Assembly: GCA_008501635.1 (NCBI GenBank)
Contig: QQUJ01000018.1
Location: 248,680-312,679, forward strand
DNA: 64,000 nucleotides
Direction of reading: 5' to 3'
Source: Pseudomonadota bacterium
GTDB lineage: Bacteria; Pseudomonadota; Gammaproteobacteria; QQUJ01
The notes under the pieces were generated by a model. It did not search any database and was not told the origin of the DNA. It saw only the letters and a program-made list of their open reading frames with translations. This document shows positions 33,030 to 58,525 of the stretch, piece by piece. Every line of letters starts with the position of its first letter. The first letter of the stretch is position 1. The position numbers and the translations under genes were made by a program.

Positions 33030-33110
33030 TCGCCGCTCAAGGCGGTGATGGCCGTCTGGCGTTCGCTGTAACCTGCTAAAATCGCCCGAAACCCCGCATT
33101 GAGGTCGGAA

Positions 33111-34142
33111 ATGAACCGCCGTGATGACAAGGGCAGTTCTGCAGATTGGGCACGCTTCTGGGACCATGCACAGCAGCAGGCATGGGATGCCTGGAGCCAG
33201 ATGGCACGTCAGGCGCTGCCGCAACCGAAACCGCAACCCGATCAGCTATGGAAGCTTTGCGCCGATGGCCTGGAACGTCTGTGGCAAGGACGAAGTGCGC
33301 AGCTAACGGGTACGTCGCAAGAGGTTTTCAGCCGCGTGATCGATCAGGGCAAGGGTTTTCTTTTTCTCAGCCATGAGCTGCTGCGTGCTGTCGAAACGAT
33401 ACAGAAACAAGAGGAGCAGGGCGCTGATTGGAAACTGGCGCTGCGCAACGCTGTTGACAGGATTCAGGAGCAACTGCGGCAGTGGTCGGGGGTCTCTGTC
33501 GGGCAGACCGCGCTTTGGGGATTGCCGGCGGAAATGTGGGAGCGACTCTCATCGGCTCTAACGCTGGCGCCTGGTGACTGGTCGGCACACCTGAGGGCTG
33601 TTGCAGGCAAACCGCAAGAAGCGGCCCAGAGTTACCAGGATTGGTTGGAGTATTGGCCGGGGCTCAGCCGTGAGTGGCAGCTGCGTGCCAGGGCGGGGGG
33701 GCAGCGCGCGGAACGGTATCAGGAAGCATGGCGTTGTTATGCCGCGCAATTGCTCGATGTGGGTGTGTTGGCGCTTGATTATCTGTACGAGCGTCTGATT
33801 CAGATGGGTGAAATGGGTGGACGGATCCGTGATCTGCATACTCTATACGATCTCTGGATCGATGCTGCCGAGCAGGCTTATGCAGAGGTGGTGAGCACGC
33901 CGGAGTTTGCCAAACAGCAGGCCGAGGTCGTCAACGCGGCGGTTGCGCTCAAGCTCTGCCTGCATGAGTCCCTCGAAACCGTCGCCCGGATCAACAACCT
34001 CCCGACCCGCGCCGAGCTCGATAGCGCTCAACGCGCTATCAAGGAGCTGCGTGCCGAACTGGCGGACGTGCGCGCTCAACTCGCCGAATCCACGAAACCT
34101 GATTCAACGCGGAAACGAAGCCGCAAAGGCGCGGGAAAGTGA
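33111..34142 (+). CDS. phaE: class III poly(3-hydroxyalkanoate) synthase subunit PhaE
   Basis: A Trp-rich N-terminus and the conserved C-terminal PhaE box (NLPTRAELDSAQRAIKELRAEL), about 343 aa. Its stop overlaps the phaC start (GTGA). Confidence 0.8.
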   Translation: MNRRDDKGSSADWARFWDHAQQQAWDAWSQMARQALPQPKPQPDQLWKLCADGLERLWQGRSAQLTGTSQEVFSRVIDQGKGFLFLSHELLRAVETIQKQEEQGADWKLALRNAVDRIQEQLRQWSGVSVGQTALWGLPAEMWERLSSALTLAPGDWSAHLRAVAGKPQEAAQSYQDWLEYWPGLSREWQLRARAGGQRAERYQEAWRCYAAQLLDVGVLALDYLYERLIQMGEMGGRIRDLHTLYDLWIDAAEQAYAEVVSTPEFAKQQAEVVNAAVALKLCLHESLETVARINNLPTRAELDSAQRAIKELRAELADVRAQLAESTKPDSTRKRSRKGAGK

Positions 34143-35209
34143 GCAGCACACCCTTCGATTTCGATCATGAGGCATTGCTTAAGGAGTTGGGTGATTTCCA
34201 GCAACAACTGACCCGCGGTTTTAACAATCTTGCAGAGATTGAAACTATCGATGTGGGGACAAGCCCGCGCGAAGAAGTTTATCGCGAGAACAAACTGCGA
34301 CTATTCCGATATCGTCCGTTGGTGAACAATCCGCATCCGGTGCCGTTGCTTATTGTTTACGCGCTGGTGAACCGACCCTACATGGTGGACTTGCAGCCGG
34401 ATCGATCGCTGGTCAGGCGTCTGCTCGAGTCGGGTATCGATGTCTATTTGGTCGACTGGGGTTACCCTGATCGGGAGGACCGATTGCTTACGCTGCACGA
34501 TTACCTCAATGGTTATCTGTTGCGTTGTGTGGAGCAGATAGGTCGACGTCACAGTCTGGAGGCGATCAATCTGCTCGGGATCTGCCAGGGGGGTACTTTC
34601 AGCCTTTGTTTCAGCGCGATGCACCCACAGCGGGTGCGCAACCTGATCACTATGGTGACTCCGGTGGATTTCAGTACCGAAGGAAACCTGCTGGCGCATT
34701 TCATGCGCTCGATCGACGTCGATCAACTGATCGAAGCCTACGGTAACGTGCCTGGGGAGTTGCTCAATTGGGCTTTTCTGGCGCTGAAGCCATTCCGACT
34801 TGTCAGTCAGAAGTACGTGAATCTGGTCGAGATTCTCGATAGCCGCGAGAAAGCACTCAACTTTCTGCGCATGGAAAAATGGATTTTCGACAGCCCGGAT
34901 CAACCGGGCGAGGTATTCCGTGAGTTCGTCAGGCAGTTCTTTCAGGAGAACCGCCTGATGACAGGCGAGGCGGAGATTGGCGGGAAGCGGATTGATCTCC
35001 ATGCCTTGAAGATGCCGATACTCAATATCTACGCAACCCAGGATCACTTGGTGCCGCCGGCCGCTTCGTTGGCGCTGGGCGACTGTGTGGAGAATGATGA
35101 CTATACGGTAGCAGCCTTTCATGGCGGGCATATAGGGATCTATGTCAGTAGTCGGGCGCAGAAAGAGATCCCTGCCGCTATTGCGGATTGGCTGCGTCAG
35201 CGGAGATAG
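34139..35209 (+). CDS. phaC: class III poly(3-hydroxyalkanoate) synthase catalytic subunit PhaC
   Basis: 356 aa with a GICQGG lipase-box Cys. Its full length aligns with Allochromatium-type PhaC (VPLLIVYALVNRPYM, LRMEKWIFDSPDQ). Confidence 0.9.
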   Translation: MSSTPFDFDHEALLKELGDFQQQLTRGFNNLAEIETIDVGTSPREEVYRENKLRLFRYRPLVNNPHPVPLLIVYALVNRPYMVDLQPDRSLVRRLLESGIDVYLVDWGYPDREDRLLTLHDYLNGYLLRCVEQIGRRHSLEAINLLGICQGGTFSLCFSAMHPQRVRNLITMVTPVDFSTEGNLLAHFMRSIDVDQLIEAYGNVPGELLNWAFLALKPFRLVSQKYVNLVEILDSREKALNFLRMEKWIFDSPDQPGEVFREFVRQFFQENRLMTGEAEIGGKRIDLHALKMPILNIYATQDHLVPPAASLALGDCVENDDYTVAAFHGGHIGIYVSSRAQKEIPAAIADWLRQRR

Positions 35210-35215
35210 CGGGCG

Positions 35216-35836
35216 ATGGATAATTGTGGAGGAATCCTGCAGGTCTACGCCATCGACGGTGTCATACCCGTGGTGCATCCACAAGCCTACGTCCATCCTA
35301 CCGCCGTTTTGATCGGTGATGTGATCATCGATGCAGGAACCTATGTAGGGCCGGGCGCATCGTTGCGGGGGGATCTGGGCCGTATTCGAATCGGCAGAGG
35401 ATGCAATATCCAGGACAACTGCATTGTTCATGGCTTCCCCGGGGGTGAAACCGTGGTTGAGGAGAACGGACATATTGCCCATGGCTCGGTGCTTCATGGG
35501 TGTGCGGTGCTGCGCAATGCCCTGGTGGGTATGAATGCCGTCGTAATGGATGGTGCCCAGGTTGGTGAATCGGCTATCGTTGCGGCCATGGCGCTCGTCA
35601 CTGCGGGCACGCAGGTACCCTCCAGGCATCTTTTGGCGGGAGTCCCTGGTCGTATAGTGCGCGAGCTCTCCGACGCCGAGCTGGCATGGAAAGTCGAGGC
35701 TACTGCCGAGTATCAGCATTTGACGACGCGCTGCCTGCAGACACTCGCCCGGGTGATGCCGCTCACGGAGGAGGAGCCTGATCGTCCCCAACTCCACCCT
35801 CGGGGTGTGGCTCCCCTGCACCTGACCAGGAAATAG
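35216..35836 (+). CDS. left-handed beta-helix hexapeptide-repeat protein (gamma-carbonic anhydrase / PaaY / YrdA family)
   Basis: Hexapeptide repeats and conserved His residues (IVHGFPG, HGSVLHG). It starts 7 nt after the phaC stop. Confidence 0.7.
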   Translation: MDNCGGILQVYAIDGVIPVVHPQAYVHPTAVLIGDVIIDAGTYVGPGASLRGDLGRIRIGRGCNIQDNCIVHGFPGGETVVEENGHIAHGSVLHGCAVLRNALVGMNAVVMDGAQVGESAIVAAMALVTAGTQVPSRHLLAGVPGRIVRELSDAELAWKVEATAEYQHLTTRCLQTLARVMPLTEEEPDRPQLHPRGVAPLHLTRK

Positions 35837-36135
35837 TTTGATCCGCCGCACCGATTCTTCGCTTTCGCGTTTAGGATGCTAGACTACCCAATAACGCTAC
35901 CTCGAGAGGGGATATTGGTGTGGCTGATAACGATGCGCCCTATGAGGGGAAAGAACGTCGTAAGGAGCAGCGCCGCAAGCAAGAAGACCGGCGGGAACTG
36001 GTTCGTTTCGAACCGGAGAAAGAACCTCGGCGCAAGAAGAAGGGGCGACGCAAGGACGATGGCGCTGATATTTGGGATCGCCGCGATATCTGATCGTATC
36101 CCTCGGTAGGATAATTTTCTCCAAGGGCGGCAATA

Positions 36136-36173
36136 CGCCGAAACGGATCTCGGTAGACGGCCGAGGTTCGGCG
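36136..36173 (+). promoter_or_regulatory. nested RNA hairpin in the 5' leader of the response-regulator/GGDEF operon (CGCCGAA...CTCGG-tagacgg-CCGAG-g-TTCGGCG)
   Basis: 7-bp outer and 5-bp inner perfect inverted repeats, 43 nt upstream of the REC-gene ATG. No U-tract follows. Confidence 0.3.
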
Positions 36174-36215
36174 TGCTCTTGAACTGACACCGAACAAAGC
36201 AAAGCTCAGGCAACC

Positions 36216-37214
36216 ATGACCACCGCGGTACTTATTTGCGACGACTCCAGCATGGCGCGCAAACAGATGGCGCGCACACTCGCAGACGGTTGGGACGTGG
36301 CGCTCTCTTTCGCCAGCAATGGGGTGGAGGCGTTGGCGGCCATCAAAGAGGGGAAGGGCGACGTGCTCTTTCTCGATCTGAATATGCCCGTGATGGATGG
36401 GTATGAAACGCTACAAGCCATCAACCGTGAAGATCTTCCAACGATGGTGATCGTGGTCTCCGGTGATATCCAGCCCGATGCGCAACAACGGGCGAGCAAA
36501 TTGGGGGCGTTGGCGTTTATCAGGAAACCGGTAGTCAAGGAAGAAGTATTCGAAATTCTCTCCCAATATGGCATCGTCAGCGAAGCAGGTGCTGTGGCGA
36601 TCGCGGCCCCCGAGGCCAGCGGCTCTGTCGGCATCATGGATTGTTATCAAGAGGTGGCCAACGTCGCGATGGGGCAAGCCGCCGATCTGCTGGCACGTCT
36701 GCTCGGCGTATTCGTGGTTCTTCCAGTGCCAAACGTCAATTTGCTTGAGCCGAGCGAGCTGCAAATGGCGCTGGCACAGACGACGGAGGAGGCTTCGGTG
36801 TCTGCGGTGTCACAAGGATTTATTGGCGGCGGTATTGCGGGTGAGGCGTTGTTGCTCTTCCATGATTCCAACTTCGAACAGATTGCGCGTTTGATGCATT
36901 ACGAAGGCGAAGTCGACGATGCCATGGAACGGGAATTGGTTATGGACGTTGCCAGTATCCTGATCGGAGCCTGCGTTAAGGGTCTAGCCGCGCAGCTGGA
37001 TGTCAGTTTCAGTCAAGGGCACCCGGTCATCCTCGGGCAGCATGTCAACATGGCCCACCTGGTCGACGGCAAAGCGTGCAGTTGGAGCAAGACTTTGGCG
37101 ATTGAAATCAGCTACACCCTGGAGGACGTCGATATCAGTTTCGATCTATTGCTGCTGATCGCCGAGGATTCGCTACCGACCGTCGATGGAAAACTCGCTT
37201 TTATGTTGGAGTGA
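36216..37214 (+). CDS. response regulator with an N-terminal CheY-like receiver domain and a C-terminal CheC-like (CheC/CheX/FliY phosphatase family) domain
   Basis: REC: DD pair, phospho-acceptor in LFLDLNMPVMDG, and a conserved K. C-terminal: a D-x3-E-x2-N-x22-P CheC active-site motif (DCYQEVANVAMGQAADLLARLLG...P) plus a degenerate second repeat. Confidence 0.65.
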   Translation: MTTAVLICDDSSMARKQMARTLADGWDVALSFASNGVEALAAIKEGKGDVLFLDLNMPVMDGYETLQAINREDLPTMVIVVSGDIQPDAQQRASKLGALAFIRKPVVKEEVFEILSQYGIVSEAGAVAIAAPEASGSVGIMDCYQEVANVAMGQAADLLARLLGVFVVLPVPNVNLLEPSELQMALAQTTEEASVSAVSQGFIGGGIAGEALLLFHDSNFEQIARLMHYEGEVDDAMERELVMDVASILIGACVKGLAAQLDVSFSQGHPVILGQHVNMAHLVDGKACSWSKTLAIEISYTLEDVDISFDLLLLIAEDSLPTVDGKLAFMLE

Positions 37215-37220
37215 TGGGGG

Positions 37221-38183
37221 ATGGAAAGCGATAAAATAGACATTCGAGAACTGCACTGGATGATGGATATGGTGCAGAGTATCGATGTCGGACTCATCGT
37301 CATTGATCGCGAGTATCGGATTTCCGTGTGGAACAGCTTCATGCAGAATCACAGTGGCAAGAGCGCTGAATCCGTTCAGGAGCGGACGTTGTTCGAGGTA
37401 TTCCCAGAGTTGTCCAGAGAGTGGTTTCAGCGCAAGGCGGAGTCTGTGTTTCTTCTTAAAACGAAGGCTTTTACCACTTGGGAGCAGCGCCCCTTTCTGT
37501 TTCGCTTCAAAAGCTATCGGCCTATTACAGGCGCCGAGGAGTTCATGTATCAGAACGTGACCCTCAATCCGCTGGGATCTGCGACCGGTGAGGTCGATCA
37601 CATCTGCATAATTCTTTACGACGTTACCGATATCGCCTCACACAAAAGGGATCTGGAGCTCGCCAATGCGGAACTGGCCAATCTTAGTCGCACCGACCGC
37701 CTGACCCGGCTCAACAATCGCGGGCACTGGGAAGAGAACTTGGTAGCTGAGTTCCAACGCTTCAAACGCTACGGAACAAAAAGCACCCTGGTTATGTTCG
37801 ACATCGATTTCTTCAAAAAGATAAATGACACCTGCGGTCATCAGGCAGGTGATGAGGTGTTGAAGGTGATGGCCGATACTTTGCGCAAAAATATACGTAC
37901 TACCGACATCGCCGGCCGCTACGGCGGCGAGGAGTTCGGTGTCATTCTCGCGGCAACCGATGTCGAAGGCGGAGTGTTTTTCGCAGAACGATTGCGAAAA
38001 AACGTTGAGAAATTGGTGGTGACCTACGAGGGGCAGGAGATCCGCTTTACGATTAGTCTGGGTATCGCTCCGGCAGACGAAGAGATGAAGGATTACAAGC
38101 AATGGTTGGAGTGTTCGGATCAGGCCCTTTACGCATCAAAACATGGGGGGCGTAATCGACTTACCATAGCCGGCCAAACGTAA
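37221..38183 (+). CDS. PAS-domain diguanylate cyclase (GGDEF; GGEEF active site with an RxxD I-site)
   Basis: An N-terminal PAS fold, then RTTDIAGRYGGEEF. It starts 6 nt after the stop of the REC/CheC-like gene. Confidence 0.85.
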   Translation: MESDKIDIRELHWMMDMVQSIDVGLIVIDREYRISVWNSFMQNHSGKSAESVQERTLFEVFPELSREWFQRKAESVFLLKTKAFTTWEQRPFLFRFKSYRPITGAEEFMYQNVTLNPLGSATGEVDHICIILYDVTDIASHKRDLELANAELANLSRTDRLTRLNNRGHWEENLVAEFQRFKRYGTKSTLVMFDIDFFKKINDTCGHQAGDEVLKVMADTLRKNIRTTDIAGRYGGEEFGVILAATDVEGGVFFAERLRKNVEKLVVTYEGQEIRFTISLGIAPADEEMKDYKQWLECSDQALYASKHGGRNRLTIAGQT

Positions 38184-38196
38184 CGGACCGGCAGAG

Positions 38197-38227
38197 AAAA
38201 AAGGCGCACCAGCGTGCGCCTTTTTTT
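38197..38227. terminator. bidirectional rho-independent terminator (A6-GGCGCAC-cagc-GTGCGCC-T7) between the GGDEF gene and phaB
   Basis: A perfect 7-bp GC stem flanked by an A-run and a T-run, so it works on both strands. Confidence 0.8.
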
Positions 38228-38241
38228 GGCCGGCGCTCCAA

Positions 38242-38985
38242 TCAGAACATGTGCTGGCCACCATTGATGGCGAGATTGGAACCTGTGATAAATCCACCGT
38301 TCTCCTCGGCCAGGAACACGACAGCGCGGCCAATTTCTTCCGGTTTGCCCAAACGGCCAACCGGGATCTGGGCGACAATCTGTTCGCGTACCTTCTCGGG
38401 AATCGCCATTACCATCTCGGTACCGATATAGCCGGGCGAAATGGAGTTGACGGTGATGCCTTTGGCGGCACCCTCCTGAGCCAATGCCTTCGTTATGCCG
38501 TATATACCGGCCTTCGCCGCCGAGTAGTTGGCCTGACCGAATTGACCTTTCTGACCGTTGACCGATGAGATGTTAACGATGCGGCCGTATCCGCGTTCCA
38601 GCATTCCATTCCAAACCTGAGCGGTGACGTTGTAAACACTGTTCAGATTGGTGTCGATGACAGCGTGCCACTGCTCGGGGCTCATCTTCTTGAAGGTGCC
38701 GTCGCGAGTGATACCCGCATTATTGACCAGAATGTCGACCGGCCCGAGTTGTTTTTCGACCTGCTCGGCCATGGCCTTGCAGGATGCGACGTCCGTCACA
38801 TCGCCTGGCACGATCATCATGTCAAAGCCATCGGCCTTCATCTTTGCCTGCCAGGCCTGGGCTTTCTCGGCTTCGGCCGGGAAATAGTTGGCAGCCACCT
38901 TGGCGCCGCCTTTTGCCAGCTCGATGCAGACCGCGGTGCCTATACCGCCGATACCACCAGTAACCAGTGCTACTTTGCCTTGCAT
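38242..38985 (-). CDS. phaB: acetoacetyl-CoA reductase (SDR family)
   Basis: TGGIGGIG Rossmann motif and YSAAK catalytic motif; 247 aa with a strong PhaB-like alignment. Confidence 0.85.
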   Translation of the reverse strand: MQGKVALVTGGIGGIGTAVCIELAKGGAKVAANYFPAEAEKAQAWQAKMKADGFDMMIVPGDVTDVASCKAMAEQVEKQLGPVDILVNNAGITRDGTFKKMSPEQWHAVIDTNLNSVYNVTAQVWNGMLERGYGRIVNISSVNGQKGQFGQANYSAAKAGIYGITKALAQEGAAKGITVNSISPGYIGTEMVMAIPEKVREQIVAQIPVGRLGKPEEIGRAVVFLAEENGGFITGSNLAINGGQHMF

Positions 38986-39031
38986 ATCGCTACTCCTCGT
39001 CTGTGTTGCTTGTTAGCTTGATGTTGGGGGA

Positions 39032-40210
39032 TTAACGCTCGACGGCAATGGCGACACCCTGTCCACCGCCGATGCACAGCGTTGCCAGACCCTTCTTGGC
39101 ATCGCGTTTGATCATCTCGTGGAGCAGTGTCACAAAGACGCGACAGCCCGAGGCGCCGATGGGATGGCCCAGCGCAATAGCGCCTCCGTTGACGTTGACT
39201 TTATCGGGATCCCACTCCATACCGCGATTGACGGCTATGGCCTGTGCTGCGAAGGCTTCATTGGCCTCGACAAGATCCAGATCCGATACGTTCCAGCCCG
39301 CCTTTTTCAGGCACAACTGTGAAGCGGGAATCGGGCCGGTACCCATAATGGCCGGATCAACACCAGCGCTGCTGTACGCGGCGACGCGTGCCAGAGGCTC
39401 CAGACCCAGTTGGCGCGCCCGCTCGGCGCCCATTACCACAACCGCCGCGGCCCCATCGTTCAGCCCGGAAGCGTTGCCCGCCGTTACGGTGCCGTCTTTT
39501 TTGAATGCCGGCCGCAGTTTGCCGAGGCTCTCTACCGTGGCTCCGAAGCGTGGGAATTCGTCGGTTCCGAAGATGATGGGGTCGCCTTTACGCTGCGGAA
39601 TTTCGATCGGCAAGATCTCATCGGTAAAGCGGCCGGCTTTGATCGCGGCCTCAGCTTTCTGCTGTGAAGCCGCGGCGAAGACATCCTGTTCTTCGCGCCC
39701 GATGGCAAATTTTTCGGCGACGTTCTCCGCCGTGATGCCCATATGGTAAGCATGAAAGGCATCCTGGAGGCCGTCTACGATCATGGTATCGATCAACGAC
39801 CAATCCCCCATCCGCGCCCCATTGCGTGAGTTGGGTAGAACATGTGCCGAGGCGCTCATGTTTTCCTGTCCGCCGGCGATGATCACATCAGCGTCGCCAC
39901 AGCGAATAGCCTGTGCAGCCAGGTGAATCGCTTTCAGGCCGCTGCCACATACCTTGTTGATCGTCAGGGCAGGCACACCATGGGGGAGTCCACCATGAAT
40001 CGCCGCCTGACGTGCCGGGTTCTGCCCACTGCCTGCGGCAAGTACCTGTCCGAGGATAATCTCATCCACCTGTTCAGGGCTGAGACCGGTCTTGCGCATC
40101 AAGCCGCTGATAACATGGGCGCCGAGGGCGCTGGCGCTGAGACTCGCGAGTGTGCCGCCGAAACTGCCAATAGCGGTTCGCGTGGCCGCGACAATTACTA
40201 CATCTTGCAT
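39032..40210 (-). CDS. phaA: acetyl-CoA acetyltransferase (beta-ketothiolase)
   Basis: Starts [19 protein letters not shown]. Thiolase signatures [18 protein letters not shown] and CIGGGQG. The ATG is at 40208-40210. Confidence 0.9.
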
Positions 40211-40423
40211 GAACTGCCTCCAAAAGTTGTTGGCACCGAGAGGATGTGACACCGACCACCCACCGCCTCCCATGTTGGGTGGGCGAAGAACATCGGCCGA
40301 AAAACGAGGCGGCCACTATACGTCGAAGTATGGTGGTATCGCCACCTCTGGGCCCATCGAATCGCATAAAGAAAACCCCCTCATTGAGGGGGTTTTCCAT
40401 GTCACGCGATCGCTACTTGCCGC

Positions 40424-40861
40424 TCAGGCGGCTTTCTTTGGCGTAGCGCCCTTCTTAGTGCTGCCGGTGGCGGTCTTGACACCCTCTTCCACCTTCACTG
40501 CAACTGCCTTGAAACCCTCTTCGATCCTGGTGCTGGCAGACTTGAAGTTCTCCTCAGCCAGAGCGTTCAGTTCGGCTTGCGCCTCCAGCATGATCTCCAG
40601 GGCGGCCTGTGCCTGACCCTGAAGCTTGCTGGTGTAATCGGCAGCCAAAGCGGACTGTTTTTGCAGCAGATCCTGCAAGGACTTGATTTCACCAAAAGAC
40701 TGACTCTGCTTGACCCCCTCCTGGATGCTTTCGCTAACCAGGGTCAGTTGCTGTTTGGTCAAGCGCTCCATCGCACGCGAGGTGATCTGATTCATTCTCA
40801 CCACCGGCGCCAGGGCGGCCTGGTTCACTTCTTTCCAATTCTCAAACATTTCGTTCTGCAT
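40424..40861 (-). CDS. phaP: phasin (PHA granule-associated protein, PhaP family)
   Basis: 145 aa, Ala/Gln/Glu-rich amphipathic protein with a C-terminal KKxA tail, lying between phaA and phaR. Confidence 0.75.
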   Translation of the reverse strand: MQNEMFENWKEVNQAALAPVVRMNQITSRAMERLTKQQLTLVSESIQEGVKQSQSFGEIKSLQDLLQKQSALAADYTSKLQGQAQAALEIMLEAQAELNALAEENFKSASTRIEEGFKAVAVKVEEGVKTATGSTKKGATPKKAA

Positions 40862-40905
40862 GACATGCTCCTCGAATTAACAACCCACCCGTTAGGGGAT
40901 TACGT

Positions 40906-40938
40906 TTGTGCGCTGCACAAATGGTGCTATGCAGCATA
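40906..40938 (+). promoter_or_regulatory. candidate PhaR operator in the phaP promoter region: TGTGCGCTGCACA followed by the perfect palindrome CTATGC-A-GCATAG
   Basis: Dyad elements with TGC/GCA cores, 45-75 nt upstream of the phaP ATG. Known PhaR sites are TGC-rich dyads. Confidence 0.3.
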
Positions 40939-41084
40939 GGCAGAGAGGGTCTCCATGTCAAGCGTCTAGCCACCTTGTGTGTATGAATTTTTTGTGAGGA
41001 TGGCGAAAGTATCAGGGAAACTTGGTGCAGTGCAGAATACTGATCGGGAGGACCTATGGATGGGGTGGTGCGGAAGGGATCAAC

Positions 41085-41618
41085 TCAACGGTCTTTTTTA
41101 CCAGAGACCTTGTCGTTCGGTGTTTCGTTGTGAGAGGGGTCGTTCTTACCTGTCGCTGAGGCGAAGAAATTCTCCTGCATCTTCTGCCAAAGCGCCAGGT
41201 TGCGGTCAGCCATTTCGCTCATGACCGCCATGGGGGTTCGGCTCATAAGATCGGTCATCTGGTCACGGAGAATGTGTTGTTGCTCCATGAACATCTCCAT
41301 GCTTTTCTCCAGGTAACTGCTCATCACACTCTGCAGATTGTCTCCATAGAAACGGATGATTTTGGTCAACATATCGGTGGAAAAAATGGGAGAACCTTCA
41401 TCTTCCTGCTCGGAAATGATCTGCAGGAGGATATTGCGGGTGATCGCCTCGCCGCTCTTGGCATCGACAACCTGAAACTCGACGTTGTCCATGACCAACT
41501 GTTTCACGTCGGCCAGGGTGATGTAGCTACTGATCGCAGTGTCGTAAAGACGGCGATTGGGATACTTCTTGATAGTCCGGATTTCGCTCATGGATTCGCT
41601 CATAGAATAGGGATACAT
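41085..41618 (-). CDS. phaR: polyhydroxyalkanoate synthesis repressor PhaR
   Basis: IKKYPNRRLYDTAISSYITLADVKQLV is the hallmark PhaR N-terminal DNA-binding motif. The start is ambiguous among three in-frame ATGs (41618, 41603, 41591). Confidence 0.85.
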   Translation of the reverse strand: MYPYSMSESMSEIRTIKKYPNRRLYDTAISSYITLADVKQLVMDNVEFQVVDAKSGEAITRNILLQIISEQEDEGSPIFSTDMLTKIIRFYGDNLQSVMSSYLEKSMEMFMEQQHILRDQMTDLMSRTPMAVMSEMADRNLALWQKMQENFFASATGKNDPSHNETPNDKVSGKKDR

Positions 41619-54586: not shown

Positions 54587-56209
54587 TTATCCCTTGATGC
54601 GTTCGAAATAAAAGCGATCCAGTGAGCTGGTGGCCTCGATAAGTTTGCTGGCGCGGATACGGATCTGCCCATCGCCGGATTTGATAACCGATTCCTTTTG
54701 TGGCTGATAGATCCCATGCGGGGTTACCAGTTGCGGCGGCAGAGGGCGGTCTGCCTGGCGGATCTCGATTTCCAGTGCGGCAATTGAGCGAACCGTATCG
54801 CCGCTGGTGTCGCGAACGATAACCGGTTTCGCATGATCGGAGAGATACTGCACCCCCACATTGATCTCGTCTTCCTGCTCCTGGCTCAGCCATCGAATTA
54901 CGCCAAGCAGCCAATTTTCCTGGCTGCTTGCTGGATTACGAAAAATGATCAGCTGTCCGACGCGCATCGCCGGGTTGCATGGTAGGCGCACGCTCAGAGC
55001 AACACCGCCGGTACTGTGATTGATCAGTCGCCACCGCTCCTGTTGTACGCGTATCCCGGTTGGGCGACGCATGGCGCCTGAGGTGCTTATTTCGATGGAG
55101 TCGTCTTTGTGCAGATGTGATTCGGCCGCCAGTTCCGCATCTTCTTTCAGCACTTCATGGGCCGAGTTTAGCCCGCACACGCCCTCGACCCATGAGAGGC
55201 GTTCGCGCCTTTCATGTTGGCGGGTCGGGCAGTGCCACCAGCTGAGCATCAGGTAACGCAGTACACGCACAATCTCCTGAGTCGGCAACTCCAGGTGGAT
55301 ACCCGCCTCTGCTGCGCGATTGCCTACCTCAAGTTCACGGATCTGATCATCAATCCACTGCGCGAGATCGTGAGTATCCAGAATCCGGTGGCGATCGGAA
55401 TCAATCTCCACGGCCTCACTATTGAGGGGTTGGGGCGCGCTGGTGCCTTCGAGATCGATTAAGAACTGGCCGTTCTTGCGCGGCCCCTTTGCGGGACGTG
55501 TTATTTTTCCGAGTTCGGCCCAACGGTCGAGAAAGTCATAGACCTTCCAGGCTTCACCATTGCCAAGGTGGTAGGGGTCACTCCGCGCTGTAAGGGCTAT
55601 CTGTTTATAGATGTGTGTGATGCTGGAGGAGGGCAGGCTGCTGTTTTCGTCGTCTATATAGGCGTTGTCGGCTAGCCCGTGCTCTAATGCCAATGCATAC
55701 AATTGATTAAGTTCGCCCCAAACATGACTTGAGGCGGGTGCATACGAGTGAAAACTGAATAACTGCTCCAAACCGAGAAACTTGATTGCGCGCAGGATGC
55801 TGGCTTGGAGGATACGGTCGGCGGATCTGATACCGCCTTCGGCCATCCTGTCGGTAACCACTATCTTGAAGGCAAAGGAGAGTTCCCGTGCTAACCGGCT
55901 CAGCGCCGCCAATGATTCATTGGCCTTGCGGCTCTGACGTACAGCGATTCCGGCACGTAGGAGTCGTGATTGAAGTTGGATCAGTTTGCGAAAGGTCTGG
56001 CGATAAAGTTCGACCAGCGGAAGACGTACCTGGGGTGTCAGGCGTTGGCGATTGAGGGCGGCAAGCTCTTCGCTGACTATACCGCAGGTTTTGATCGGAT
56101 CGGTGTACGGCAGCTGTTCTAGAAAGCGGCGCAGTTCTGTGGGCCTGGTCTCAATGCGCGGGTCGGGCAGATCGTTGCGCGTCGGTATCGTTAACTTTAT
56201 TTGCGTCAT
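54587..56209 (-). CDS. large (~540 aa) PilZ-domain protein (putative c-di-GMP receptor) with an uncharacterised ~430-aa N-terminal region
   Basis: A C-terminal PilZ-like signature (MRRPTGIR ... LINHSTGGVALSV, i.e. the D/NxSxxG motif). The start was set at MTQIKLTIPT (ATG 56207-56209). Confidence 0.5.
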   Translation of the reverse strand: MTQIKLTIPTRNDLPDPRIETRPTELRRFLEQLPYTDPIKTCGIVSEELAALNRQRLTPQVRLPLVELYRQTFRKLIQLQSRLLRAGIAVRQSRKANESLAALSRLARELSFAFKIVVTDRMAEGGIRSADRILQASILRAIKFLGLEQLFSFHSYAPASSHVWGELNQLYALALEHGLADNAYIDDENSSLPSSSITHIYKQIALTARSDPYHLGNGEAWKVYDFLDRWAELGKITRPAKGPRKNGQFLIDLEGTSAPQPLNSEAVEIDSDRHRILDTHDLAQWIDDQIRELEVGNRAAEAGIHLELPTQEIVRVLRYLMLSWWHCPTRQHERRERLSWVEGVCGLNSAHEVLKEDAELAAESHLHKDDSIEISTSGAMRRPTGIRVQQERWRLINHSTGGVALSVRLPCNPAMRVGQLIIFRNPASSQENWLLGVIRWLSQEQEDEINVGVQYLSDHAKPVIVRDTSGDTVRSIAALEIEIRQADRPLPPQLVTPHGIYQPQKESVIKSGDGQIRIRASKLIEATSSLDRFYFERIKG

Positions 56210-56430
56210 GCTAAGACTATAGGCCCAATGGCAACTGTGACTGCGGGGGATGGTACTGGATTTAGAGTGGATTCCGCCGCATTTTCCCTCACATGGGGCT
56301 ACTTTAGCCAGCTTCCAATGCCTGCGCCATACCTCGGTGGCGATGGAGGCTGGGAGCCTGGACACTGCAGGTCGAAGTTGAGGATACTCATGAGCGGGAT
56401 TTCTGCCTAGACATTAGGGTGTAGAAAACC

Positions 56431-56731: not shown

Positions 56732-58525
56732 TTGGCGGTGCATGGAAAAAAGGCGTTAGAAACGCCGGATCGTAAGCTGAAGCTTGGCGAGATCGTCGAG
56801 ACCCTGGTAAAGGAGGGTCTGGTCGCCGATGCTCAGGCACAGCAACTGTATGCCAGGACAACCAACAGCCATTTGAACCTTCACCCCCTGGTGGTTATTG
56901 CCGATCAGGGCTGGACGCTACTTGGTCATCCGGGACGCAAACTGTCTTTGGAATATCTGACGGAGTGGCTTGCGCAGCATAGCCACCTGCCCTACTACCG
57001 TATCGATCCACTGAAAATCGACGTTGCCAAGGTCACGGCGGTGATGTCGCATGCCTATGCTGCGCGGTTTCGAATTCTGCCGGTGGAGGTGGAGCGCGAG
57101 GCGGTCGTGATTGCCACCGCCGAACCCCTGGTTCGTGAGTGGGTGAAAGAGCTTACCCATGTCCTGCGCTGCAAGGTACGTCGGGTGGTAGCGAATCCCG
57201 CTGAGATCACACGCTATCTCGATGAGTTTTACGGGCTAAGCCGCTCGATCAAAGAGGCCGTGTCCGAGAAGGGCGCGGAGAGCCCGGTCGGTATCACCAA
57301 TCTGGAGCAATTGGTGGAGTTGGGGCGCAGCGGCAAGCTTGATGCCAATGACCATCACATCGTCAGTATCGTGGATTGGCTGTTGCAGTACGCATTCGAG
57401 CAGCGAGCCAGCGATATTCATGTGGAGCCACGCCGCGATGCCGGCAACATTCGTTTCCGTATCGATGGTGTCCTCCATTTGGTTTACGAGATGCCGGTCC
57501 CGGTGATGGCGGCGGTCACCAGTCGCATCAAAACGCTGGGTCGTATGGATGTGGTGGAACGGCGGCGCCCCCAGGATGGACGGGTTAAAACCCGCACGCC
57601 CAAAGGCAACGAGGTGGAACTGCGGCTTTCCACTATGCCGACCGCATTCGGTGAAAAACTCGTGATGCGGATATTTAATCCCGATGTTTTGGTGCGCGAC
57701 TTCCGGCAACTCGGTTTTACCGAGAGCGCGGTCGCCACCTGGAATGCGATGACCCGTCATAGCCACGGAATCGTCTTGGTTACCGGCCCTACCGGTTCGG
57801 GTAAGACGACTACGCTCTATTCCACACTGAAGCAGCTGGCCAAACCCGAGGTCAACGTCTGCACGGTGGAAGATCCCATTGAGATGGTAGAACCCAGCTT
57901 CAATCAGATGCAGGTCCAGCACAATATCGGTCTCGATTTTGCCAGCGGGGTGCGTACCCTGCTGCGCCAGGATCCCGACGTGATCATGGTGGGCGAAATA
58001 CGTGATCTGGAAACAGCGCGCATGGCCACGCAAGCCGCACTCACGGGGCACTTGGTGCTCTCGACGCTCCACACCAATGATTCGATTTCTGCGATAACGC
58101 GATTAATGGAGATCGGTGTACCGGCCTACCTGATTCGCGCGACGTTGCTCGGGGTAATGGCCCAGCGCCTCATCCGTACCCTCTGCCCGCACTGCAAGCA
58201 GGCGGGTGAGTTGGATGCAGCAGCCTGGAAGGCACTGACCGCAGGCAGCATGCAGTCACATCCGACCTCCATCATGCAACCGGTCGGATGCGATGAGTGC
58301 CGCCATACAGGCTATCTGGGGCGACACGGCATCTACGAGATGCTGCCCATATCATCGAAGCTCAAAGGCATGATTCAGAACGATTTCAGTCTGCGAACCG
58401 TCAAGCAGCAGGCGTTGACGGAGGGTCTGCGGGAGTTACGGATCGCCGGTGCGCTGAAGGTCGCCGAAGGGCTGACGACGCTTGAGGAGGTATTCAAGGT
58501 TGCGGCCCCCGCGGAGAACGACTGA
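56732..58525 (+). CDS. orphan GspE/PilB/MshE-family secretion ATPase with a T2SSE_N-type N-terminal domain
   Basis: Walker A (GPTGSGKTTT), Asp and His boxes, a tetracysteine Zn motif (CPHCK...CDECRHTG), and an N-terminal KLGEIVETLVKEGLVADAQAQQL T2SSE_N-like segment. It uses a TTG start 7 nt after GAGGAGG. No other T2SS or T4P genes are nearby. Confidence 0.8.
   Translation: MAVHGKKALETPDRKLKLGEIVETLVKEGLVADAQAQQLYARTTNSHLNLHPLVVIADQGWTLLGHPGRKLSLEYLTEWLAQHSHLPYYRIDPLKIDVAKVTAVMSHAYAARFRILPVEVEREAVVIATAEPLVREWVKELTHVLRCKVRRVVANPAEITRYLDEFYGLSRSIKEAVSEKGAESPVGITNLEQLVELGRSGKLDANDHHIVSIVDWLLQYAFEQRASDIHVEPRRDAGNIRFRIDGVLHLVYEMPVPVMAAVTSRIKTLGRMDVVERRRPQDGRVKTRTPKGNEVELRLSTMPTAFGEKLVMRIFNPDVLVRDFRQLGFTESAVATWNAMTRHSHGIVLVTGPTGSGKTTTLYSTLKQLAKPEVNVCTVEDPIEMVEPSFNQMQVQHNIGLDFASGVRTLLRQDPDVIMVGEIRDLETARMATQAALTGHLVLSTLHTNDSISAITRLMEIGVPAYLIRATLLGVMAQRLIRTLCPHCKQAGELDAAAWKALTAGSMQSHPTSIMQPVGCDECRHTGYLGRHGIYEMLPISSKLKGMIQNDFSLRTVKQQALTEGLRELRIAGALKVAEGLTTLEEVFKVAAPAEND

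Follow-up and report, generated by a model that had tools for sequence, protein, structure and literature searches.

The regulator examined here is related to the CheC/CheX/FliY superfamily. CheC of Thermotoga maritima and Bacillus subtilis is a class I CheC-type CheY-P phosphatase; CheC proper has two functional ExxN sites and a CheD/chemotaxis partnership. CheX (class III) measures about 150 aa and carries one site, located on the helix of its second repeat. In PleD, WspR, and DgcR, a receiver and a GGDEF domain lie on one polypeptide, which is activated by dimerization. Phosphate-sink CheY proteins, such as Sinorhizobium CheY1, and the receivers of hybrid kinases rapidly draw phosphoryl groups off a kinase or Hpt protein. 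A functional connection between CheX and c-di-GMP signaling, via PlzC and PlzD, exists in Vibrio (PMC12799141, PMC12887009). REC-CheC regulators such as Psyr_0886 of Pseudomonas syringae appear in domain censuses as uncharacterized entries, and in the sections of these sources that deal with Psyr_0886, its cloning and purification served solely to obtain a candidate phosphotransfer partner of BphP1, with no phosphotransfer to it reported there (PMC2222644, PMC5654926).

Here, we describe a REC-CheC-type regulator gene and the PAS-GGDEF gene that follows it, which lie in a PHA locus within a 64,000-nucleotide stretch of DNA (the window). A literature search for a characterized REC-CheC/GGDEF system returned census listings and work on stand-alone CheX only. 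This outcome agrees with an earlier reading made from the sequence alone, which could match the pairing to no characterized system, and the operon is apparently unstudied.

Layout of the locus

The features of the locus are collected in Table 1. The sequence-only reading had described two tightly linked genes 6 nt apart; both plus-strand ORFs are real, and the gap is exactly of that length. A GGAG/GGGGG ribosome-binding sequence overlaps the 3' end of gene 1, and we infer that the two genes are translationally coupled. Position 35837, where the region had been taken to start, is the first base after the stop codon of the upstream gene rather than the start of gene 1. The pair had also been placed between phaEC and a phaB-phaA-phaP-phaR block. 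The flanking genes were confirmed, but the pair does not directly abut phaEC: two genes that had been missed, a hexapeptide-repeat gene and a 57-aa ORF, separate it from phaC. The 57-aa ORF lies in the 379 nt between the hexapeptide gene and gene 1.

Table 1. Positions of the features discussed, numbered from the first nucleotide of the window
Feature	Positions	Strand	Description
phaE and phaC, class III PHA synthase (context)	33099-35209	+	profile matches
PaaY/CaiE-like hexapeptide-repeat gene	35216-35836	+	gamma-carbonic-anhydrase-like; 7 nt 3' of phaC
Conserved GGaTGCTAgACT motif	35874-35885	+	similar to an extended -10 element (TGn-TAnAcT); ~35 nt before the 57-aa ORF
Conserved 57-aa Arg/Lys/Glu-rich ORF	35920-36093	+	GTG start; GAGAGGGGA ribosome-binding site upstream
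Regulator gene (gene 1)	36216-37214	+	332 aa; REC, variable linker, CheC-type domain
REC domain	36228-36557	+	D9, D10, D54 (phospho-acceptor, LDLNMP), S82, K104; F101 at aromatic-switch position
Flexible interdomain linker	36573-36629	+	length and sequence variable
CheC-type domain	36630-37211	+	two-repeat alpha/beta fold
Site 1, D142-x3-E146-x2-N149-x22-P172	36639-36731	+	canonical CheC/CheX/FliY active-site motif, helix alpha-1
Site 2 (pseudo-repeat), E240-x3-D244-x2-S247-x22-P270	36933-37025	+	degenerate
Intergenic spacer TGGGGG	37215-37220	+	6 nt, gene 1 stop to gene 2 ATG (TGA-TGGGGG-ATG)
Cyclase gene (gene 2)	37221-38183	+	320 aa; predicted cytoplasmic PAS-GGDEF diguanylate cyclase
PAS domain	37269-37631	+	PAS_4 34.2 bits (cut-off 23.1); PAS 31 bits
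GGDEF catalytic domain	37692-38159	+	Pfam PF00990 E = 6e-45, 153 bits; TIGR00254 176 bits
I-site R226-T-T-D229, five-residue spacer, active site G235-G-E-E-F239	37896-37937	+	residues 226-239
Bidirectional intrinsic terminator A6-GGCGCAC-CAGC-GTGCGCC-T7	38197-38227	.	serves both gene 2 and the convergent phaB operon
phaB, phaA, phasin, phaR, convergent (context)	38242-41591	-	profile matches

The surrounding genes were assigned by profile searches. PhaC scores 524 bits against TIGR01836, exceeding the cut-off of 365. PhaE matches PHA_synth_III_E (E = 2.8e-46), its Pfam score of 158.7 bits lying above the cut-off of 25.7 and its NCBIfam score of 136.7 bits below that of 154.95. PhaB (TIGR01829, 386 bits), PhaA (PRK05656, 691 bits), and PhaR (TIGR01848, 156 bits) all exceed their cut-offs, confirming the context of a class III PHA locus, and a Phasin_2 match is present. 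The hexapeptide gene matches Pfam Hexapep and scores 288 bits against NCBIfam PaaY (cut-off 320) and 264 bits against CaiE. The terminator was overlooked by a promoter/terminator consensus scan and was spotted by eye. Folding confirmed it: the energy is -33.1 kcal/mol (z = -4.7) for one strand and -32.3 kcal/mol (z = -4.3) for the other, and 0 of 200 shuffles folded as well.

The 57-aa protein is 72-77% identical in relatives, with 38 invariant positions in four aligned sequences, and third-base changes in its ORF are synonymous whereas the flanks diverge. The protein is arginine-rich and carries RxxD- and RxD-like motifs. Its family comprises only 26 proteins and has no Pfam match; distant members are unlinked to the pair, and two of three sit after a PlsC-type acyltransferase. 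Upstream of the ORF, the GGaTGCTAgACT motif is the sole conserved block in a spacer that otherwise diverges among four relatives, and TGCTAAACT is also found in two related loci (L094 and L095). We infer that the motif is a putative promoter. The small ORF, the regulator, and the cyclase do not in general form a three-gene unit, as none of the 80 distant loci has a small charged ORF of this kind upstream. A 62-aa ORF called in Hahella is unrelated.

The regulator and its partner cyclase

The product of gene 1 carries a receiver that matches Pfam Response_reg (PF00072; E = 1.3e-22, above the gathering score) and whose catalytic quintet is complete and conserved. In this receiver, position D+2 is Asn and position T+2 is Asp. 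The corresponding residues of CheY, Asn and Glu, are reportedly associated with fast autodephosphorylation in work from the Bourret laboratory. The linker is the least conserved part of the protein, with a mean top-residue frequency of 0.27 as compared to 0.75 for both domains. Its length differs by up to ~60 residues across homologues, and residues 124-136 have pLDDT values below 50 in the predicted structure.

The domain after the linker is less readily recognized. Searches of the whole protein detected REC alone in Pfam and NCBIfam and receivers only in the PDB. The C-terminal 195 aa on their own fall under the Pfam thresholds for CheX (PF13690; 17.0 bits versus 27) and CheC (PF04509; 14.1 versus 22), although some orthologues have a precomputed PF13690 match. 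A profile of the family, by comparison, retrieves PDB entries for FliY at E = 1e-6 and for CheC at E = 7e-5, and the domain has the CheC-like alpha/beta fold. The domains named in the sequence-only reading are thus borne out by matches above cut-off for REC, PAS, and GGDEF, whereas its CheC/CheX-type domain is recovered through the family profile and not through the Pfam models. Fold and active-site motif, but not the Pfam gathering score, point to membership in the CheC/CheX/FliY superfamily, and phosphatase activity is predicted.

The intact D-x3-E-x2-N-x22-P motif noted earlier is present in this domain and lines up with active site 1 of CheC from T. maritima. Orthologues retain the pattern [D/E]-x3-E-x2-N-x22-P in 78 of 78 cases, and within the domain, conservation is highest in the site 1 helix (0.86), where 12 of 24 positions are invariant. 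Site 2 is degenerate, with Asp in place of the catalytic Glu and Ser in place of Asn; in orthologues, this site reads DxxN (56), DxxS (15), or ExxS (6), and in none is it ExxN. The domain accordingly differs from CheC proper in having one functional-type site instead of two, and no che genes that would suggest a CheD/chemotaxis partnership are linked to it among the window genes scanned or at the related loci examined. It differs from CheX as well: it spans ~195 aa with both repeats, 177-182 of its residues align to CheC-type chains, and its intact site is on the first helix. Conservation also bears on whether the domain is an enzyme. A non-catalytic scaffold, binding protein in the style of the FliM middle domain and recruiting the cyclase or another partner upon receiver phosphorylation, is very unlikely given that the Glu, Asn, and motif proline of site 1 are kept in all 78 orthologues, on the most conserved helix. 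FliM proteins are not known to carry the CheC-type active-site motif, which also counts against a scaffold. Gene 1 encodes an orphan response regulator in which the flexible linker joins a fully competent receiver of the CheY type to a CheC-type domain bearing a single canonical ExxN site.

Gene 2 is a predicted cytoplasmic PAS-sensor diguanylate cyclase with an active-type GGEEF and a product-inhibition I-site, and its product should synthesize c-di-GMP. The intact GG(D/E)EF motif and the RxxD five residues upstream are both present, confirming the earlier identification of a PAS diguanylate cyclase with these motifs. RxxD-x5-GG[DE]EF is found in 69 of 76 partner ORFs, and the PAS domain is highly conserved across cyclase orthologues. 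When compared with named diguanylate cyclases (SiaD, DgcA, PleD, AdrA, and others), the protein scored below every NCBIfam equivalog cut-off, the best scores being those for SiaD (164.6 versus 290) and DgcA (161.3 versus 370).

Distribution of the pair and its position in the PHA locus

The gene directly downstream of the regulator gene is an orthologous PAS-GGDEF gene in 80 of 80 further gammaproteobacterial genomes; the two share their orientation and are 0-120 nt apart. The cyclase orthologue is full-length and 46-65% identical in 74 loci and 36% identical in one further locus (L052); the other five matches are partial. Carriers include Oleiphilaceae, Hahella, Shewanella, Colwellia, Pseudoalteromonas, Psychromonas, Thiogranum, Ectothiorhodospiraceae, and Methylococcaceae, among others. 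Some genomes have a split form, in which a REC gene (121 aa) overlaps a CheC-like gene (210 aa) by 4 nt and PAS-GGDEF follows. The other neighbors of the pair are housekeeping genes that differ by lineage. No linked cognate kinase is conserved at the related loci examined or present among the ten large window ORFs scanned. The pair is the local copy of a two-gene signaling operon, probably autonomous, that is widespread in Gammaproteobacteria. The sequence-only reading had overlooked that the operon is conserved and widespread.

The CheC-type domain might instead act in the manner of CheC, CheX, and FliY and dephosphorylate a separate CheY-type protein, with phosphorylation of its own receiver serving solely to regulate this activity, such that the operon ties flagellar or chemosensory signaling to c-di-GMP synthesis. 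The catalytic helix is invariant, and genetic ties connect the stand-alone CheX of Vibrio to PlzC and PlzD, which are c-di-GMP effectors (PMC12799141, PMC12887009). However, the receiver and the CheC-like domain are either fused or encoded by overlapping adjacent genes, which indicates a cognate pair, and no che or fli genes are linked at any locus examined or found among the window genes scanned. A chemotaxis link is, on balance, rather unlikely.

Embedding among pha genes is restricted to one uncultured, sulfur-oxidizer-like lineage. Every relative examined whose PhaC is 71-100% identical (at least six distinct assemblies or metagenome contigs) carries the four-gene block, which consists of the hexapeptide gene, the small ORF, and the regulator and cyclase genes; the regulators are 65-100% identical. 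In Inmirania thermothiophila, the rnf-metG-mrp-dcd-phaEC / phaBA-phasin-phaR-PFOR backbone is identical, and the phaC/phaB spacer is empty and measures 41 nt. The hexapeptide gene, which accompanies the embedded pair in every relative, opens the block that this junction lacks. In a sub-lineage that has the block, two further genes, for an enoyl-CoA hydratase and a hybrid kinase, have entered the phaC/phaB junction. The comparison suggests that the block is a lineage-specific insertion into the convergent phaC/phaB terminator region. The possibility, raised with the earlier reading, that the pair is unlinked to pha genes in all relatives holds for distant relatives and not for close ones.

That reading had further suggested a mobile signaling cassette. 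Insertion relative to Inmirania stands: the block is missing from an otherwise collinear locus, and the junction accepted further genes in the sub-lineage. Recent acquisition of a mobile cassette is nonetheless highly improbable. No transposase or integrase is present, the window is devoid of genes for tRNA and other RNAs, no recombinase is found among the block genes, and flanking direct or inverted repeats are not above chance. GC3, at 0.62-0.67, does not deviate from that of phaE, phaC, and the hexapeptide gene (0.63-0.64), and the block was stably inherited while the regulator diverged to 65% and PhaC to 71% identity.

The position of the pair could also reflect dedicated PHA control. The module would then have been recruited in this lineage so that a phosphorelay or a PAS-sensed cue (redox, carbon, or energy state) acts via c-di-GMP on the making or mobilization of PHA, with PhaR, phasin, the synthase, or the 57-aa protein as a possible effector. 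The pair does lie between phaEC and phaBA-phasin-phaR in every one of the close relatives examined, the kinase at the sub-lineage junction is a hybrid histidine kinase with an Hpt domain that is accompanied by the enoyl-CoA hydratase, and the gene directly after phaC is PaaY-like, a family tied to CoA-thioester metabolism. In contrast, phaC/E/A/P/R occur within 10 kb of the pair in 0 of 80 other genomes, the pair ends at the terminator shared with phaB and is fused into neither pha operon, and Inmirania operates the same pha locus without it. Profile searches found no known c-di-GMP receptor domain in the pha genes, and a literature search found no paper tying a diguanylate cyclase to pha loci. 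An Rfam scan of the whole window gave no matches and hence no c-di-GMP riboswitch, and an MshEN-type ATPase (56732-58525) contains no strict match to the canonical c-di-GMP-binding motif. Conservation of the embedding only within one lineage is what simple inheritance would predict, whereas its stability over substantial divergence is also what a functional link would produce. We consider dedicated control unlikely and a PHA link possible but unsupported; the position most likely reflects a permissive insertion site. The earlier proposal that control is coupled to carbon storage is not upheld, given the separation from pha genes in all 80 genomes, the shared terminator, and the two genes that intervene after phaC.

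Proposed mechanism and comparison with known systems

The reading we favor, with somewhat better than even confidence, is an autonomous operon in which a self-resetting regulator gates its partner cyclase and the PHA position is a permissive insertion. An unlinked histidine kinase or Hpt protein would phosphorylate D54. The tethered CheC-like domain would then place its E146/N149 helix in the active site of the receiver, in cis or across a dimer, and speed hydrolysis, so that the regulator would act as a phosphate sink or as a transient switch that resets itself. Direct contact could let the phosphorylation state of the regulator gate the cyclase, with the cyclase also integrating a PAS-sensed input and c-di-GMP as the output. 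Self-dephosphorylation and regulator-cyclase contact are suggested by architecture and co-occurrence. It is distinctly improbable that the pair, whether fused or split, represents an unrecognized class of c-di-GMP control with a built-in phosphatase timer, recruited into the PHA locus to set carbon storage, in which the 57-aa protein might be the effector.

Each domain belongs to a well-known family, and the combination is conserved at 50-60% identity across several gammaproteobacterial orders; no functional study of it was found. If the tethered CheC-type domain resets its own receiver, the protein would be a compact response regulator with a built-in timer that drives second-messenger synthesis, and a direct molecular link would be added to the genetic ties reported between Vibrio CheX-type phosphatases and c-di-GMP. 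For PHA biology, the locus is cautionary: the adjacency is lineage-specific, at a convergent-terminator junction open to other genes, and without experiment is not evidence of c-di-GMP control.

Among described proteins, CheC differs from the regulator in that the domain here is fused to a receiver, has a degenerate second site (D..S), and scores below the Pfam CheC/CheX thresholds; there is no cheD or other che gene nearby, and the partner is a diguanylate cyclase. CheX of Borrelia burgdorferi, T. maritima, Vibrio cholerae, and V. vulnificus is of the same superfamily and uses the same catalytic ExxN principle as that predicted here. Psyr_0886 / PSPTO1039 has the same listed architecture, an orphan REC + CheC regulator, the likeness being one of listed domains only (PMC2222644, PMC5654926). 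The REC-GGDEF proteins PleD, WspR, and DgcR share with the proposed system a phosphorylatable receiver that controls an I-site-bearing GGDEF cyclase. Here, these domains are split between two proteins, a PAS domain provides the input of the cyclase, and a phosphatase-type domain is attached to the receiver. Phosphate sinks such as Sinorhizobium CheY1 have the role proposed for the regulator, but they achieve it through intrinsic or kinase-mediated dephosphorylation rather than through a tethered CheC-type domain.

Gene Layout at the phaC/phaB Junction

The stretch at 35837-38183, which the sequence-only reading had taken for two linked genes 6 nt apart between phaEC and the phaB block, contains three ORFs, not two. 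The linkage is confirmed: the gap between the regulator, a receiver (REC) joined by a linker to a CheC-type domain, and the PAS-GGDEF cyclase is exactly 6 nt (TGA TGGGGG ATG), and a GGAG/GGGGG sequence overlaps the 3' end of the regulator gene. The gene boundaries are corrected here; position 35837 is the first base past the stop of a hexapeptide-repeat gene and not a gene start. The placement also stands, with two genes that had been overlooked, the hexapeptide gene and a small ORF. The order is phaE-phaC (class III)-hexapeptide gene-small ORF-regulator-cyclase-bidirectional terminator, followed by the convergent phaB-phaA-phasin-phaR, and Pfam and NCBIfam back every pha assignment at the locus.

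Features of the junction and other genes mentioned in the text (window positions)
Feature	Position	Strand	Remarks
Large NAD-specific glutamate dehydrogenase, 1613 aa	10911-15752	+	ACT and helical-motif domains, full set
Protein of about 174-181 aa	30744-31289	+	between metG and mrp; no Pfam family (precomputed gene calls)
PaaY/CaiE-like hexapeptide-repeat gene	35216-35836	+	gamma-carbonic-anhydrase fold; 7 nt 3' of phaC
Small ORF, 57 aa	35920-36093	+	Arg/Lys/Glu-rich
Regulator, 332 aa	36216-37214	+	
Cyclase, 320 aa	37221-38183	+	
Bidirectional intrinsic terminator	38197-38227	both	perfect, A6-stem-loop-T7; between the cyclase gene and phaB
592-aa ORF	54587-56365	-	no Pfam match at E<=1e-5
T2SSE/PilB-type ATPase	56732-58525	+	with MshEN domain

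The small ORF (MADNDAPYEGKERRKEQRRK...GRRKDDGADIWDRRDI) is 72-77% identical within the embedded lineage, the uncultured relatives that carry the pair inside the PHA locus, and is coding, as synonymous changes among relatives show. It belongs to a family of 26 proteins, has no Pfam match, contains RxxD- and RxD-like motifs, and is preceded by a conserved extended -10-like motif. The hexapeptide gene is probably co-transcribed with phaEC; its product may assist PHA metabolism as an enzyme that works on CoA thioesters.

Domains of the Regulator and the Cyclase

The receiver (residues 1-118) is canonical (Pfam E=1.3e-22), with the full set of D9, D10, D54, S82, and K104; the phospho-acceptor loop LDLNMP is kept in 77 of 78 orthologues. 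The predicted model shows the linker as disordered; no other part of the protein is less conserved (0.27), and linker length differs by tens of residues. The C-terminal domain falls under the Pfam thresholds for CheX (17 bits vs 27) and CheC (14 vs 22). A profile built from 16 family members matches, among PDB sequences, Thermotoga maritima FliY (E=1e-6), CheC (E=7e-5), and an archaeal CheC (E=1.4e-3), and it aligns the family's DCYQEVANVAMG onto the first active-site helix of CheC. The site 1 signature, D142-x3-E146-x2-N149-x22-P172, is intact and recurs as [D/E]-x3-E-x2-N-x22-P in 78/78 orthologues. By these sequence comparisons the domain is CheC-type despite its sub-threshold scores, and the original REC and CheC-type calls hold. 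The signature sits on the domain's most conserved element, where conservation averages 0.86 and 12 of 24 positions are invariant. A non-catalytic scaffold role like that of FliM is an unlikely alternative for the domain.

In the pseudo-repeat, site 2 (E240-x3-D244-x2-S247-x22-P270), both the catalytic Glu and the catalytic Asn are replaced, and orthologues mostly have DxxN and never ExxN. With two repeats, the domain therefore resembles CheC in topology but carries one canonical site only, on the first helix. CheC, in contrast, has two sites, whereas CheX is about 150 aa and its site corresponds to the second repeat.

PAS_4 and PAS exceed their cut-offs in the cyclase, and GGDEF scores E=6e-45 (Pfam). 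R226-TT-D229 is followed after five residues by G235-GEEF, the textbook spacing of I-site and active site, and 69 of the 76 partner ORFs show this type of pattern; the PAS, GGEEF, and I-site calls thus remain in place. The cyclase scores below every NCBIfam equivalog cut-off. Conservation of its PAS domain among orthologues is strong, and no cofactor signature was recognized in it. Elsewhere in the window, the T2SSE/PilB-type ATPase has an MshEN domain, a class known for c-di-GMP binding; a pattern search did not find the strict c-di-GMP-binding motif in it.

The Pair as a Widespread Operon

The best 120 of thousands of database relatives of the regulator are full-length, with 53-100% identity (53-65% outside the window's lineage), and come from Hahella, Oleiphilaceae, Alkalilimnicola, Thiogranum, Thalassotalea, and others. 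When one genome per species was scanned, 585 of the first 600 pattern matches were confirmed as encoded relatives, and more exist beyond these. In 80/80 retained loci, a PAS-GGDEF match starts 0-120 nt downstream on the same strand, which makes the operon partnership strict: 74 are full-length with 46-65% identity, one (L052) is full-length with 36%, and five are partial, mostly at contig ends. No further neighbor is conserved across lineages, and no conserved kinase lies beside the pair in the related loci examined; recurrent neighbors are housekeeping genes (peroxiredoxin, Hsp20, lnt, corC, ybeY, phoH). The pair is an autonomous, widely distributed operon.

Among 1.84 billion cluster representatives searched with a profile, the CheC-like subfamily falls into two size classes, fused (about 320-355 aa, domain at about 140-335) and stand-alone (about 200-210 aa). 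In a split unit (L097 2546-4719; L098), which represents the single stand-alone member whose locus could be placed, a 121-aa REC overlaps a 210-aa CheC-like protein by 4 nt and is followed by a 316-aa PAS-GGDEF protein, all clearly orthologous to the window's. A gene for a MaoC/PhaJ-type dehydratase and a 95-aa ORF rich in Cys are found immediately upstream of this unit. Fusion and fission of this kind argue for receiver and CheC-like domain as cognate partners and for the cyclase as part of the same unit. Less probably, the domain acts on a chemotaxis CheY, as does, to our knowledge, every characterized CheC-type family member. In Vibrio, CheX has been tied to PlzC and PlzD (PMC12799141, PMC12887009).

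The PHA Locus and Known Systems

Embedded relatives, from several MAGs and metagenome contigs, have regulators 65-100% and PhaC 71-100% identical to the window's. The nearest named organism by PhaC (66%), Inmirania thermothiophila, shares the backbone rnf-metG-mrp-dcd-phaE-phaC and phaB-phaA-phasin-phaR-PFOR-DHODH-DUF3108, with a phaC-phaB gap of just 41 nt. The ~3-kb block (35210-38240), positioned exactly at the convergent phaC/phaB junction, was therefore inserted in the window's lineage or lost in Inmirania. The hexapeptide gene is kept across the embedded lineage and missing from the Inmirania pha locus. The gene between metG and mrp (conserved in the embedded lineage, with products of 161-174 aa in relatives, and missing at the same Inmirania position) is a second lineage-specific insertion in this backbone. 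In a sub-lineage (L086 10493-13866; also L087 and L090), the junction adds an enoyl-CoA hydratase-family gene and an 812-aa hybrid kinase (HisKA-HATPase-REC-Hpt), which may be the regulator's cognate kinase; both genes are absent from the window.

That the block is a mobile cassette, as the sequence-only reading had proposed, is very unlikely. Repeats around it do not exceed chance, no recombinase was found at the block, the window has no RNA gene, and the block's GC3 (0.62-0.67) equals that of phaE, phaC, and the hexapeptide gene; nothing in its sequence marks it as a mobile element, and this proposal is not supported. The terminator common to the cyclase gene and phaB is strong (z about -4.5 on each strand), so transcription does not join the pair to the phaB operon. 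A consensus terminator scan missed this element.

The unit could, with low probability, be dedicated to PHA control in the window's lineage, where the closest relatives all retain the embedding, hexapeptide gene and small ORF included. However, phaC, phaE, phaA, phasin, and phaR are absent within 10 kb in 80/80 distant loci; the pair is linked to pha genes in all closest relatives and unlinked in these distant loci. The earlier inference of control from position is weak because an autonomous, widespread operon landed in a permissive pha junction in one lineage.

REC-CheC regulators appear in domain censuses, for example, Pseudomonas syringae Psyr_0886/PSPTO1039 (PMC2222644); another study cloned and purified Psyr_0886 solely as a possible BphP1 phosphotransfer partner, with no function assigned (PMC5654926). 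The literature searched, largely outside the subscription journals and so no proof of absence, contains no functional work on a REC-CheC protein, on its pairing with a PAS-GGDEF cyclase, or on a pha locus with a diguanylate cyclase inside it, in agreement with the original failure to match a characterized system. The pair is a variation on two known themes, CheC-type phosphatases and GGDEF cyclases under two-component control, and it matters mainly as an uncharacterized, highly conserved signaling unit rather than as a PHA regulator.
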